Part shown: positions 20,319 through 60,552 of the stretch, piece by piece | Position numbering within the stretch: position 1 is the first letter of the stretch | Layout of the letters: every line of letters begins with the position of its first letter | DNA from: Escherichia phage slur16 | Sequence record: NC_028248.1 | DNA length: 64,000 bases | Reading direction: 5' to 3' (one strand) | Program-made: the position numbers and the translations under genes | Notes under the pieces: model-generated | The model's database searches: none | What the model saw: only the letters and a program-made list of their open reading frames with translations | Told to the model about the DNA's origin: nothing

Positions 20319-20637
20319 CGTTTATGTTCGGGCAAGGTCGCTAGTCTTGCCCCGCCATTTTCAGGCAGCTGCATGTCTCCATGCAGACCAGACTATATCT
20401 TATAAGCGACAACAACCGCTTATCCTCCCGTTTCGAATCGCTTGATTCTACGTCTTTCGACTAGTCGTTGAACGTTCATCCTCTCGGATGCTTCGCTGCG
20501 GATTATCTAAATTAACACACTGTTACCATACCTTCGATCTCTCTTCGAAGCCTCTATCATGTTACCATGACAGGTTGGTGGTATTAATAGTAAAGATTTC
20601 CCCGCAATTAGGGAGGTTTTACGAGAGCTACAAATTA
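20319..20637 (-). mobile_element. group I self-splicing intron (ORF-less) in terL
   Basis: Minus-sense conserved elements in order: P AAUUGCGGGGAA (20609-20598), Q AAUCCGCAGC (20504-20495), R GUUCAACGACUAGUC (20473-20459), S AAGAUAUAGUCUGG (20401-20388); no ORF; splits Walker ATPase from nuclease domain. Confidence 0.8.
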
Positions 20638-21063
20638 ACCCTCATCGAAGCAAACCATGGTGTACTCAAGCCCTTGATGGTTAAGCTTATCTTGTACATA
20701 CTCCATGTGGCAGTATTTTACAACAGCTCCCTTTTTGCTTCTATCCCACTTGCCAGTGTTCGGATCAAACCGTGGAAAAATGAACTTATGATCCTTCTCT
20801 CTGAACTTTGGCTTAATGTTTTCAGGCAGATCACTATAAATAGCTACCGCTTTAGGCCATAGTCCACCCTCACCTTCCAACTGCGGGGTTGTTCTTCGGA
20901 ACATAACCACAGAGCTGTGGGGGTCATCAATAATTTTAAGTGGCATCAATTGCAAGAGGAACGACTTGCCAGACCCTGCGGCACCGCCGATTACCAAAAT
21001 ATCTGCATCGTTTTCGAGGATCATCTTCTGCTTTTCAGAACACGGTCCGTAAATCTTAGACAT
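20638..21063 (-). CDS. terL: terminase large subunit, exon 1 (ATPase domain)
   Basis: Walker A GGAAGSGKS and Walker B-like VCFDE; ORF-track stop at 20635 lies in intron sequence. Confidence 0.8.
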
Positions 21064-22412: not shown

Positions 22413-22511
22413 GGTGCTAGGTGATGGAATCGAACCACCTATGTATTCAACGACTACCTCGTCTATTTTCAGGATTAAAAATCCTCGCCCTTGCCAAAGG
22501 GCTTACCTAGC
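22413..22511 (-). tRNA. aberrant tRNA-like gene (possible pseudo-tRNA; Lys-UUU-like anticodon loop but oversized variable region)
   Basis: Perfect 7 bp acceptor GCUAGGU/ACCUAGC, D-arm GCCC-UUUGGCAA-GGGC and T-arm GGUGG-UUCGAUU-CCAUC, but ~47 nt between D- and T-arms; only CC encoded at 3' end. Confidence 0.3.
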
Positions 22512-57182: not shown

Positions 57183-57466
57183 TAATGAAAAAGATTAACA
57201 GTAGTGAAGTAGAGTTTAAACTTGTCGGAAAAGGCACTTACTGGGAAGTTCGTCAAAAGGTATATTTGTTCGGTCTTATTCCCTACTGGTCTAAATTCTA
57301 CTGGGGAGCTAACGAGTTGGGAAGATACGCCACCAAATCAATGGCACTTATTGGTATAGCAGAGTACATTGCAGCCCGAGACAGGGTTGGAACCACTTAT
57401 TACTACACTGCTGACGATATTCGTAACAGTGTTTACGTCCCACAACCACCTGATGGAGACCGTTGA
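57179..57466 (+). CDS. hypothetical protein
   Basis: 95 aa, coupled. Confidence 0.4.
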   Translation: MIMKKINSSEVEFKLVGKGTYWEVRQKVYLFGLIPYWSKFYWGANELGRYATKSMALIGIAEYIAARDRVGTTYYYTADDIRNSVYVPQPPDGDR

Positions 57467-57690
57467 TGAAAGTTAAAGTTTTAGATTCAAGCTTCTATAT
57501 TGGTCAGGAGCCTTTAGTAGGAAAAGTGTTTACTGCTGTCCCTAACGAAGATTACCCTGACCTTTTAAAAATAAAAGGAGCAGATCTTATTGCCGCTGGT
57601 GCATCTCAGGAATGCTTTGACAGTCAGTGGACCTATAACTTTGCCCTAGGTGAGGATGTAGAGGTAGTGGAGGACGATCATGAAGGTTAA
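57463..57690 (+). CDS. small protein, paralog family A
   Basis: MMKVKVLDSSFYIGQEPLVGKV...IKGADLIAAGA...VEVVEDD. Confidence 0.5.
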   Translation: MMKVKVLDSSFYIGQEPLVGKVFTAVPNEDYPDLLKIKGADLIAAGASQECFDSQWTYNFALGEDVEVVEDDHEG

Positions 57691-57934
57691 AATTCTTGAT
57701 TCTAACGTCTACTTGGGACAATCCTTCCTGAATGGAAAGGTCGTTCCTGCGGTATACTTTGAAGGGTTGCCGTGGGATGATCCTGTGCGGCAACATCACA
57801 GTTATGTAGGCCACAACGTGGTGTTTATCTTGGGATCAGACCTGATCACCGCTGGTGCACCTGAATATTATTTCGGGGAAGAGTCCTACTATGCCTTTGG
57901 GGTAGGGTCAGATGCAGATATTGTAGAGCTGTGA
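57680..57934 (+). CDS. small protein, paralog family A
   Basis: MKVKILDSNVYLGQSFLNGKV...ILGSDLITAGA...IVEL. Confidence 0.5.
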   Translation: MKVKILDSNVYLGQSFLNGKVVPAVYFEGLPWDDPVRQHHSYVGHNVVFILGSDLITAGAPEYYFGEESYYAFGVGSDADIVEL

Positions 57935-57946
57935 TGGGTAACCGTT

Positions 57947-58345
57947 GTGAAAAATAAACTGTTTAAAGTTACAATGAAAATTCGCGGGGCTTGGAGCGTA
58001 AAGCAAGGGCGTATTCCAGAATTTGAGAAAGACTTCTACGTAGTCTCCACCTCGGAGGAGGCTGCATGCTGGCAGGCTGGCTATGCCTATGCAAGAACCT
58101 GGTACGAAGGATACCAGACTGGGGGCTATGACGGAGAAATTATCAGCAAGGGTGTAGAAGAAATTAATGTGTTGACAAGTGAAAAAGTTTTTGTTATAGT
58201 GCATCCAGATTCCAGAGTGAAGCATTACTGGAATGCCAGAACAAAAACTTGGACACCGTTTGCAGATTCTGCTACGCCACTTTTAAACCAGAAAGCTCTT
58301 GACTCTGCCCCAAGTTATGGGGTTGTTGAAGAAAAGCTAAACTGA
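57947..58345 (+). CDS. protein, paralog family B
   Basis: Shares FYVVSTSEEAA...HP...YW...WTP...ATPLL pattern with ORF 60157-60552. Confidence 0.5.
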   Translation: MKNKLFKVTMKIRGAWSVKQGRIPEFEKDFYVVSTSEEAACWQAGYAYARTWYEGYQTGGYDGEIISKGVEEINVLTSEKVFVIVHPDSRVKHYWNARTKTWTPFADSATPLLNQKALDSAPSYGVVEEKLN

Positions 58346-58362
58346 AACAGTGAGGTGTCACC

Positions 58363-58653
58363 ATGATGGATTTAATTCTAAATATTGATAACGCAGGAGA
58401 GTTTAAAGACGATGGTGTAACAAGCATGGACAAACCCTGCTCTGCTAAGGTTGACTCAAAATGGACCTACAAGTTTGACGGAGAGATCTTCGCAAATGAT
58501 GAGAAGGTTGTAGATGCTGCAGCCATTTTAAACGCTCTAGGGTACGACCCTGTGAATTCTTTGATCAAGGATCCTGTTGAGTTTGCAGAGTATGTTCGAA
58601 AAATGGCAGATCTTGCTGTGGATATTTTAAAAACTATCGACAACAAGCTGTAA
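58363..58653 (+). CDS. hypothetical protein
   Basis: 96 aa. Confidence 0.4.
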   Translation: MMDLILNIDNAGEFKDDGVTSMDKPCSAKVDSKWTYKFDGEIFANDEKVVDAAAILNALGYDPVNSLIKDPVEFAEYVRKMADLAVDILKTIDNKL

Positions 58654-58659
58654 AAACTG

Positions 58660-58688
58660 TTGACACAACGCTTCAGATTTAGTATCAT
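58660..58688 (+). promoter_or_regulatory. sigma70-like promoter upstream of HPF-like gene
   Basis: TTGACA (58660-58665), 17 nt spacer, TATCAT (58683-58688). Confidence 0.5.
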
Positions 58689-58737
58689 TGTTTTCAAAGA
58701 GAGATAGTTATTCCCTCTTCCTTAAAAGGAACACGTT

Positions 58738-59058
58738 ATGCAAATTGAAATCACTGGCAACAATGTAGAAATCACAGAAGGTATGGTATCTTTTATTTCC
58801 CGCAAAATGTCCAAGCTGGAGCGTTTACATCCCTCTGTTAACTATGCACGTGTGAGTGTAAAAGTTGAAAATGATCACCAGGAAGTTATGGCGTTCATTT
58901 TTGACAATTCTGGAAAAGAAGTTATTGCCAAGGCTAAAGGCAGTGATGCTTACGAGGCAACTGACCGTATGGTAGATGTTGCAGCACGTCAGCTGGCTAA
59001 ATGCGGTGGAAAGAAAGGTAAGGGGAAAGGCAAAGTAAAGATTGACTTTGGAGAATGA
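58738..59058 (+). CDS. hpf: ribosome hibernation promoting factor homolog (RaiA/HPF family) with Lys/Gly-rich C-terminal tail
   Basis: MQIEITGNNVEITEGM...KLERL...VSVKVE...GSDAYEATDRMVDVAARQLAK aligns with E. coli HPF MQLNITGNNVEITEAL...KLEQY...VVLKVE...GQDMYAAIDGLIDKLARQLTK. Confidence 0.75.
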   Translation: MQIEITGNNVEITEGMVSFISRKMSKLERLHPSVNYARVSVKVENDHQEVMAFIFDNSGKEVIAKAKGSDAYEATDRMVDVAARQLAKCGGKKGKGKGKVKIDFGE

Positions 59059-59195
59059 GGTGCTACAATGGGTGTGATTAAGAAATTAGTCCCAAATGTA
59101 GAGATTGCATGCTTTGAAATTATGTTTGCAATCGCAGTTGTAGTTAATGTGTTAGGTTACGGCTATTAATATCAAATAATTGAGGAGACCTCTAA

Positions 59196-59465
59196 ATGAA
59201 AATTAAATTATTCCAAACTGAGCTGGCAGACAAAAATTGTGGACTGGTTGAAGGCATGATTGTTGAAGCACAACCAGTGGACTATATGAAGGTGGTTCGT
59301 GATGCCCTAGGTGAAGGTTTTGATCTGATGGAGCCAGCTCTGCGAGAAGATGTTATCGAGATGGCTAAAAAGCACACACCTGAAGGTTTGGTGGTGTTTG
59401 TTGCACCGGGTAACGGAGAAGAGTTGATTGTAACTCCTGATGTGTATGAGATTGTAGAGGAATAA
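59196..59465 (+). CDS. small protein, paralog family A (divergent)
   Basis: MKIKLF...LVVFVAPGNGEELIVTPDVYEIVEE. Confidence 0.45.
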   Translation: MKIKLFQTELADKNCGLVEGMIVEAQPVDYMKVVRDALGEGFDLMEPALREDVIEMAKKHTPEGLVVFVAPGNGEELIVTPDVYEIVEE

Positions 59466-59556
59466 TCCTGCTTGGATTAGCATACTTCCTCGCTAAGGAA
59501 GATTTGTAATTATTTGTGGGAAAGGAGTCCCAATCTCTTACCAGAGGTGATACTAT

Positions 59557-59820
59557 ATGATTGTTTATTTTAAAACTTCAGGTGGATACCCTGATTCTCA
59601 AAGCTTGATCGGAAAAACGTGCACAGCATACTCACCTCTTGATGAGGAGGTAAGCGATATTTTACGAAATATGTATCGGATTGACCCCCAAGAAGCCTTT
59701 GATCAAAACCTTGTATTTGTCAAGGGCTCAGATATGAAGTCTTTGGGAGCATTCCCTGAAGCAGATGATGATGCCGTTTATTCGTTCATGACTCCTTTTG
59801 AAGCTATGGTTGTTGGGTGA
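59557..59820 (+). CDS. small protein, paralog family A
   Basis: YFKTSGGYPDSQSLIGK...LVFVKGSDMKSLGAFPE...MVVG. Confidence 0.45.
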   Translation: MIVYFKTSGGYPDSQSLIGKTCTAYSPLDEEVSDILRNMYRIDPQEAFDQNLVFVKGSDMKSLGAFPEADDDAVYSFMTPFEAMVVG

Positions 59821-59824
59821 TAAT

Positions 59825-60157
59825 ATGAAAGTACGCTTTATTGGTGAAACAATTCCTGTGCATCTCCGGTCGCCTGAGGATTCTGCAGATCTTGCATCTA
59901 AAAAGGCGAGAGGTTATGATAAGAAAGTAACCTCAACCGATGTAGTGCTTGAGGCTACTAGTCTACCTGACCCTGCTGCATTCTTTAATCATTATGGGTA
60001 CTATTTCAGCAATCTGATGAATATCGGTGAGCTTGTGTTTATTAGTGGTGGAGAAATTGTTAGCAAGCTTGGCGGCGATCCGGATGTCTTTCATGAAACC
60101 TGTCCTTTTGCATTTGTGGTGGGTTCAGATGTGGAAGTTATTGAGGAGGTGCGGTAA
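59825..60157 (+). CDS. small protein, paralog family A
   Basis: Start at ATG 59825 (MKVRFIGE...); FAFVVGSDVEVIEEVR terminus. Confidence 0.45.
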   Translation: MKVRFIGETIPVHLRSPEDSADLASKKARGYDKKVTSTDVVLEATSLPDPAAFFNHYGYYFSNLMNIGELVFISGGEIVSKLGGDPDVFHETCPFAFVVGSDVEVIEEVR

Positions 60158-60552
60158 TGGTAAGCCTATACCGTGTTGAGTATAGCTCAGATACTGTATA
60201 CAACGTAAGAAGCAAAGATCGCAGCGACAGAGTGCAAGAAATGTATGTTCTTGCCGACAGTCCGTTATCTGCAGCGTTCAAGGCAGGGGCTCTTGCATCT
60301 CGTTGGAAATTTGAAGGCGGATCTTTCTATGAAGAAACCCTTGAAGATTCTGTTGTTATTTCTTCTGTAGAGGTTTCAGATGACTACGAAGGGAAAAAGT
60401 TCGTAATGCGGCACCCACACAGCAACATTGCGTACTACTGGGATGTTCTGAACAACGAGTGGACCCCAGATCTTCAGAAGGCTACTGTGCTAACACCGTT
60501 TTTGGCAGATAAGTTCCCACCAGAAGGTAATTTATCCGCACTGTTTCAGTAA
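60157..60552 (+). CDS. protein, paralog family B
   Basis: Paralog of 57947-58345 (YVLADSPLSAA...HPHS...YW...WTPDLQKATVLTP). Confidence 0.5.
   Translation: MVSLYRVEYSSDTVYNVRSKDRSDRVQEMYVLADSPLSAAFKAGALASRWKFEGGSFYEETLEDSVVISSVEVSDDYEGKKFVMRHPHSNIAYYWDVLNNEWTPDLQKATVLTPFLADKFPPEGNLSALFQ

Follow-up and report, generated by a model that had tools for sequence, protein, structure and literature searches.

A conserved HPF/YfiA family gene of Vequintavirus phages with a polycationic tail and a depleted basic contact track

Introduction

The 106-aa product of an open reading frame at positions 58738..59058 (+) of the window, the 64,000-nt stretch of Escherichia phage slur16 DNA analysed here (NC_028248.1), almost certainly belongs to the HPF/YfiA family and is of the short, single-domain type found in gammaproteobacteria. 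GenBank and the work of Mizuno et al. (PMC6375957) already contain the gene, its promoter and family assignment, and a functional hypothesis. Added here are evidence for selection on the protein, including its C-terminal tail, a sister lineage of the gene, an old origin, and a depleted track of basic contact residues.

Mizuno et al. (bioRxiv 10.1101/174177; Nat Commun 2019, PMC6375957) listed the homolog from phage rV5 (ABI79209, 105 aa) among virus-encoded ribosome-associated proteins. In their phylogeny it falls among gammaproteobacterial HPFs, and they proposed that a viral HPF may compete with its cellular homolog and thereby prevent the formation of ribosome dimers. When the rV5 protein was expressed from pBAD24 in E. 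coli, its peptides were recovered from crude extract and none from high-salt 70S or 100S fractions, and the small 100S fraction showed no discernible change (PMC6375957). Cells grew to OD 1 under continuous arabinose induction with normal ribosome profiles, and no toxicity was reported (PMC6375957). The negative fractionation is not decisive, because the authors note that growth phase or stringent salt washes could account for it (PMC6375957). The same mass spectrometry showed that the phage protein is made and stable in E. coli, tail included, as the C-terminal peptide VKIDFGE was detected in expressing cells (PMC6375957). A later coliphage survey mentions hpf in rV5-like phages “as already described” (PMC6969025). 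A first-pass annotation of the window had described a phage copy of HPF, which holds, and had suggested that it switches ribosomes between hibernating and active states; on this second point the published test is contrary under its conditions (PMC6375957).

Results

The phage gene encodes a short HPF/YfiA family protein

The hpf-like CDS runs from ATG to TGA and is the counterpart of rV5 ORF144 / rv5_gp139. Its extent and translation agree with the first-pass annotation, including the N-terminus MQIEITGNNVEITEGM and the tail KCGGKKGKGKGKVKIDFGE, and the likeness to HPF/RaiA noted there is borne out by Pfam, NCBIfam, PDB and fold matches, which all agree. A profile search against Pfam Ribosomal_S30AE (PF02482), proposed at that time as a check, gave a significant match over residues 3-89 (E 4.2e-15, 56.7 bits; gathering cutoff 23.7 bits). 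The model for the HPF/YfiA family as a whole, TIGR00741, also scored above its cutoff (56.8 bits, cutoff 40.9). The best-scoring subfamily model was the short-HPF (YhbH) equivalog NF007780, at 65.2 bits and below its cutoff of 125, and the RaiA/YfiA equivalog NF007654 reached 22.8 bits, below its cutoff of 158. When all PDB chains were searched with phmmer, E. coli HPF (2rql/4v8h) was the top match (E 4.2e-15), with an alignment that covers residues 1-90 and starts at residue 1 of both proteins. The phage protein is single-domain: its 106 aa contain no second domain and no long-HPF C-terminal dimerisation domain.

An AF2 model, computed from an alignment of phage variants and enterobacterial HPFs, had a mean pLDDT of 83.5. 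Residues 1-90 (58738..59007, +) were predicted with a pLDDT of about 82-95, and their S30AE-type elements (E2-8, H14-30, E34-43, E48-56, E61-68, H71-90) follow the order expected for the HPF family. With this predicted structure as the query, the top 34 Foldseek matches in the PDB were all HPF, YfiA or pY chains. The best were V. cholerae HPF (4hei) and E. coli HPF in the 100S ribosome (6h4n_x), with rmsd values of 1.0-1.1 A and E about 1e-9; 6h4n_x superimposed at 1.1 A with 43% identity.

The accurate name for the product is “HPF/YfiA family protein”. The RefSeq label “RaiA” is not well founded, because similarity to YfiA is much weaker and the YfiA tail is acidic and unrelated. Public names for the gene vary among sigma 54 modulation factor, ribosome hibernation (promoting) factor and RaiA, and in the O177 and bov phage records it is mislabelled “ATP-dependent protease La Type I”.

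hpf is effectively a core gene of Vequintavirus

The window region matches Escherichia phage slur12 at 100% identity and many members of Vequintavirus, a genus of rV5-like myoviruses with genomes of about 137 kb, at 98-100%. With tblastn, 117 phage records were found to carry hpf, each with 93% identity or more, compared with 116 records for the window capsid region; in effect, hpf is thus a core gene of the genus. Eighteen GenBank “Campylobacter phage” records (MG065635-MG065690, host C. jejuni) turn out to be Vequintavirus genomes, with at least 94% identity to window positions 58000-60000, and their host label looks doubtful.

The rV5 gene (ORF144 / rv5_gp139; ABI79209, YP_002003641), which carries a RefSeq note of similarity to a Klebsiella sigma-54 modulation protein, is the same gene, with 97% amino acid identity and the same promoter P144, tail and genomic position. 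Relative to it, the window allele has one added codon (GNNVEIT vs GNVEIT), R22 for H and V34 for A. This allele is common to slur12, navn and A51.2, and is found in about 20 records in all. The added codon reflects a three-base indel polymorphism at 58759-58764 (+), where the window reads GGC AAC AAT GTA (G-N-N-V) and rV5, most of its relatives and the sister lineage described below have G-N-V. The NN form has the loop length of bacterial HPFs, and the single N of the sister lineage suggests that the NN form is probably derived. Position 8 contacts the ribosome in some HPFs (His8 in E. hormaechei and P. aeruginosa), whereas in E. coli HPF this position is Asn and the contact is absent (bioRxiv 2025.10.07.680626). 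The allele expressed by Mizuno et al. was the shorter, G-N-V one.

hpf has its own promoter and heads a putative three-gene unit

The TTGACA-17-TATCAT promoter and the ribosome-binding site of the first-pass annotation were both found where it had described them. The sigma-70-type promoter (58660..58688, +) matches 11/12 consensus positions in our scan, with the -35 hexamer TTGACA at 58660-58665, the -10 hexamer TATCAT at 58683-58688 and a spacer of 17 nt, and the rV5 RefSeq record (NC_011041) annotates “Sigma70-type promoter P144” at the homologous site. The -35 hexamer and the spacing are kept in rV5 and in the relatives L003 and L004, and a TTGACA promoter likewise lies upstream of the hpf gene of the divergent sister lineage (L005). 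The ribosome-binding site, read from the sequence as AAGGAA (58726..58731, +), ends 6 nt before the ATG. The gene had also been placed in an “array of small early genes”. The array is borne out by the gene's place among over 25 consecutive small ORFs on the + strand, and the term “early” draws only on host-type promoters; our literature search found no transcriptome for Vequintavirus phages.

Between promoter and ribosome-binding site, rV5 and L004 have a perfect hairpin (AAGAGGG-N7-CCCTCTT). A regulatory 5′UTR structure was nevertheless rejected: the window has only a degenerate form of the hairpin and the sister lineage has none, and the fold is no better than that of shuffled sequences (z 0.01). 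Rfam gave no match to the hpf region at E values up to 1.

A second promoter-like site, TTGACT-16-TACAAT (59042..59069, +), matches 10/12 positions in the scan and has a TG extension; it is unannotated in rV5. Its -35 lies within the last codons of hpf (AAG ATT GAC TTT = K-I-D-F), and in L004, an IMG/VR relative, its -10 is a perfect TATAAT. This site could impose an extra, DNA-level constraint on the end of the tail.

Two ORFs follow hpf on the same strand. The first encodes a 33-aa hydrophobic protein (59068..59169, +; annotated as rv5_gp140). It starts 10 nt after the hpf stop codon, which is overlapped by a GAGG, and is probably translationally coupled to hpf. It is missing from the divergent lineage (L005-L008) and is thus no obligate partner of hpf. 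The second encodes an acidic protein of 89 aa (59196..59465, +) that is next to hpf in both lineages, with 53/89 residues identical, and is found in 116 phage records, the same ones. The 89-aa ORF is labelled “sigma 54 modulation factor” in the navn, SophiaRose, A6-1, nom and other records. Pfam gave neither an S30AE nor any other match for it, and we reject that label as a propagated misannotation on this ground. A terminator-like hairpin with a weak T-run (59485..59501, +) was found by consensus scan only and is unannotated in rV5. We infer that hpf and the 33-aa and 89-aa ORFs form one three-gene unit under P144, in which the 89-aa gene is probably the last.

Within the 64-kb window, tblastn detected no RMF homolog (best E 2.6), and a second hibernation factor of the HPF/YfiA type was sought there and not found. 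Small paralogous genes lie on both sides of the hpf cassette (57463-58345 and 59798-60552, +). ORF 57463-57690 resembles ORF 57680-57934 (40% identity, E 1e-14), both resemble the C-terminus of 59798-60157, and ORF 57947-58345 resembles ORF 60157-60552 (28% identity, E 2e-8). The arrangement suggests duplication of a two-gene module, with one copy per side; none of these flanking paralogs had a Pfam match.

hpf is conserved by selection and was acquired long ago

Between the window and L004, an IMG/VR Vequintavirus contig, hpf has a dS of 0.74 and a dN of 0.025 (omega 0.034), and between the window and rV5 omega is 0.05. As judged from these codon comparisons, the gene is under strong purifying selection within the rV5 clade (omega about 0.03-0.05). 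A sister lineage (P0004) encodes a syntenic protein of 103 aa, 64-66% identical, on uncultured contigs about 125-137 kb long that match Vequintavirus genomes in patches at 70-78% nucleotide identity. The synonymous divergence of hpf to this lineage is saturated.

When 1.84 billion cluster representatives were searched exhaustively with HMMER, the sister lineage was the only match above 50% identity. The closest cellular relatives were gammaproteobacterial short HPFs at 38-44% identity, and no cellular relative exceeded 44% among these representatives. The composition of hpf (GC 0.414, GC3 0.358) is like that of the adjacent phage genes. Cellular identity of at most 44% together with a phage-like composition argues that the acquisition is old, and not “relatively recent” as suggested earlier (PMC6375957). 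A recent host donor was sought and rejected, since a word-indexed search returned phage variants only and the exhaustive search found nothing above 44% beyond the sister lineage. Two other candidates were discarded: the end of P0126, an enterobacterial HPF, is frameshifted, and the match to P0127 (1160 aa, 8 stretches) is a spurious one to a repeat protein.

The Lys/Gly-rich tail is maintained at the protein level

The extra basic Lys/Gly tail, present as first quoted, comprises aa 88-106 (58999..59055, +). It is polycationic and predicted to be disordered from residue 92, with AF2 pLDDT values below 50 over residues 92-106. The protein as a whole has a pI of 9.0, compared with 6.5 for E. coli HPF and 5.95 for YfiA, and the net charge of the tail is +4 vs -4 for that of YfiA. 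Between the window and L004 the tail differs by 6 synonymous and 1 nonsynonymous changes: Gly and Lys codons differ and the peptide is the same. Such preservation of the peptide through changes of codons argues that the polycationic tail is maintained at the protein level. The sister lineage has a tail of similar length, YSKSKGIDKRTAKWDY, which is also basic and has a different sequence. Both tails end in K-[IW]-D-[FY]; we claim no motif here, as only two lineages are compared and the codons of the rV5 clade overlap the -35-like TTGACT.

The basic contact track is depleted and the conserved core is retained

The phage protein retains each of the 11 positions with at least 80% conservation across 140 cellular homologs (M1, G7, T13, K23, L27, V39, G59, D70, Y72, D76 and Q85). 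Cryo-EM comparison places HPF ribosome contacts at K26, Q29, T53, H55, E60, H62, K80, R83, K87, K89 and K91 (bioRxiv 2025.10.07.680626). We scored a conserved basic track on helices alpha1 and alpha2, in contact with 16S rRNA, that consists, in E. coli HPF, of R17, K23, K26, K80, R83, K87, K89 and K91. The window protein keeps 5/8 of these positions and the sister lineage 4/8, and YfiA itself has no K89 equivalent. At least 6 of the 8 are kept by 130 of the 140 cellular homologs, and 5 or fewer by the other 10.

In E. coli numbering, K26, R83 and K87 are present in both phage lineages and K91 in the window clade. Both lineages are without equivalents of K80 and K89 (V/T and G/S) and of the conserved R/K17 (V). 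Both also have F at H55, the uS9 contact, and F or R at T53 (H55/T53 being the uS9/m2G966 contact positions). This basic deficit is no proof of lost binding, because E. coli YfiA is likewise without the K89 equivalent and V stands at the K80 equivalent in 17/140 cellular homologs. In S. aureus HPF, binding was abolished only by four simultaneous basic-to-Ala changes, and basic residues of alpha2 were critical for dimerisation (PMC4889938).

Other features of the window

Two RNA features were noted elsewhere in the window. A tRNA-like gene of 97-99 nt (22415-22511, -) lies between tRNA-Thr and tRNA-Ser, in a gap that is unannotated in the rV5 RefSeq record. ARAGORN reports it as “tRNA-???” with a 4-base anticodon, atcc, and the Rfam tRNA model gives 35.5 bits (cutoff 29); possible explanations are a tRNA with an intron, one resembling frameshift suppressors, or a degenerate tRNA. 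The terminase large-subunit gene carries a group I intron (20369-20647, -; Rfam 84.3 bits), which is already known, and the rV5 annotation of the terminase as a three-piece join with an HNH endonuclease is consistent with it.

Discussion

YfiA gives inactive 70S particles, not 100S dimers, and this is the outcome that we infer for the phage protein. Our preferred reading, held tentatively and short of even confidence, is that the protein docks weakly and in a salt-labile manner on vacant ribosomes, producing idle 70S particles and keeping a ribosome pool for the phage. Host RNA polymerase would transcribe hpf from its own sigma-70 promoter soon after infection, a timing read from the promoter sequence alone. 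The conserved core would then dock, as in cellular HPF and YfiA, in the 30S decoding channel of ribosomes free of mRNA and tRNA. With three of eight basic contacts lost and a disordered polylysine/glycine tail gained, binding is probably weaker, more electrostatic and salt-labile, and the product is probably idle 70S particles instead of RMF-dependent 100S dimers. The likely benefit would be that vacant host ribosomes stay intact and quickly reusable for phage translation as host mRNA vanishes, a protective effect that would extrapolate from cellular hibernation factors.

Weak binding is suggested by the absence of the protein from high-salt 70S and 100S fractions (PMC6375957), the 5/8 basic positions and the pI of 9.0 vs 6.5. 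An omega of 0.034, the 117 phage records, the syntenic sister copy and the promoter with its ribosome-binding site speak for a functional gene. Against weak binding, the losses at K80, K89, R17, H55 and T53 might abolish binding altogether, and the sole ribosome-association test of the rV5 protein was negative (PMC6375957).

The same residues and the same experiment have to be weighed under other explanations. In the one put forward by Mizuno et al. (PMC6375957), the protein occupies the HPF/YfiA site and a YfiA-like C-terminal extension blocks RMF, so that host 100S particles are not formed or are resolved and the ribosomes of slow-growing or stationary hosts are free for phage mRNAs. The tail does bring the protein to a YfiA-like length (106 aa, compared with 95 for HPF and 113 for YfiA), and the YfiA tail heads to the RMF site, which is not clearly the case for the short HPF tail (bioRxiv 2025.10.07.680626). 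Basic residues of alpha2 are critical for dimerisation of S. aureus HPF (PMC4889938), the K80 equivalent is lost in the phage, and Vequintavirus phages come from gut and sewage hosts. We nonetheless consider this competition unlikely: the rV5 protein did not discernibly alter the 100S fraction (PMC6375957), the phage tail is basic and unrelated to the acidic YfiA tail (net +4 vs -4), and ousting bound host factors would require a higher, not a lower, affinity. Another reading, also unlikely, makes the protein a remodelled occupant of the decoding channel that exchanges rapidly and whose polycationic tail extends to the RMF / anti-Shine-Dalgarno region, in effect a “YfiA plus RMF blocker” and not a hibernation promoter. 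If true, it would prevent host 100S lock-in, or nuclease or defence attack on ribosomes, still admit phage mRNAs and allow productive infection of slow-growing gut E. coli. We are similarly doubtful that the HPF fold was kept while ribosome binding was lost in favour of a new RNA or protein target (such as a transcript of the phage or the host, or a host factor), with the polycationic tail as the main nucleic-acid-binding element. The recovery of the protein from extract with no peptides in ribosomal fractions (PMC6375957) fits this proposal, as do the missing basic R17, K80 and K89 equivalents and altered H55 and T53 in both phage lineages, and the distance to cellular relatives, all at 44% identity or less. 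It has to contend with the retention of all family positions that are at least 80% conserved, including K23, and of K26; with YfiA, itself lacking the K89 equivalent, and the 17/140 cellular homologs with V at K80; with S. aureus HPF, in which binding was lost only after four basic-to-Ala changes (PMC4889938); and with the authors' own caution that salt washes may have stripped the factor (PMC6375957).

The binding site of the HPF/YfiA family overlaps those of mRNA, tRNA and initiation factors. Together with the early-type promoter of hpf and the RefSeq name “ribosome-associated translation inhibitor RaiA”, this could point to host translation shut-off, in which an early RaiA-like inhibitor blocks the A and P sites of host ribosomes. 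We regard such a role as very improbable, as the RaiA model gives 22.8 bits vs a cutoff of 158 and HPF is closer at 65.2 bits, phage mRNAs would be blocked equally, and cells expressing the protein continuously grew to OD 1 with normal ribosome profiles (PMC6375957). That hpf is a non-functional passenger taken from the host is scarcely credible. It does sit among small genes of unknown function, but an omega of about 0.03, synonymous sites saturated relative to the sister lineage, its presence in essentially every sequenced Vequintavirus genome with a conserved promoter of its own, and GC (0.414) and GC3 (0.358) values that fit the adjacent phage genes are against this, and the selection and conservation data refute it.

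Phages have few direct handles on the ribosome, and phage-encoded hibernation factors are among them; hpf is strictly conserved across well-studied therapeutic and O157-typing coliphages. With an E. coli host, BASEL phages and solved HPF-ribosome structures at hand, the question of function is tractable. To that end, our residue-level and tail-selection results serve only to sharpen the design of further experiments.

Among known systems, the closest is E. coli HPF (YhbH; 2rql, 4v8h, 6h4n), which is likewise single-domain and shares K23, K26, R83, K87 and K91 with the phage protein. The phage protein differs from it in being without R17, K80 and K89 equivalents, in having F at the T53 and H55 equivalents and a one-residue insertion in the beta3-beta4 turn, and in carrying a 17-19-residue Lys/Gly tail in place of HKDKLKQH (pI 9.0 vs 6.5); the rV5 protein also had no detectable 100S effect (PMC6375957). 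E. coli YfiA / RaiA (protein Y) has the same fold, belongs to the same binding family and also extends C-terminally past the core (113 aa). Its similarity to the phage protein is lower (phmmer E 0.02; tblastn 25% identity, E 3e-4), and the two extensions are similar in length but unrelated in sequence and charge, with no homology between them. The HPFs of Cronobacter phage GAP32, Escherichia phage PBECO4 and Xanthomonas phage XaC1 are also S30AE-fold proteins of about 110 aa. They are 20-34% identical to the phage protein, lie in different contexts in jumbo phages of about 350 kb, and are independent acquisitions, in agreement with the published phylogeny (PMC6375957).
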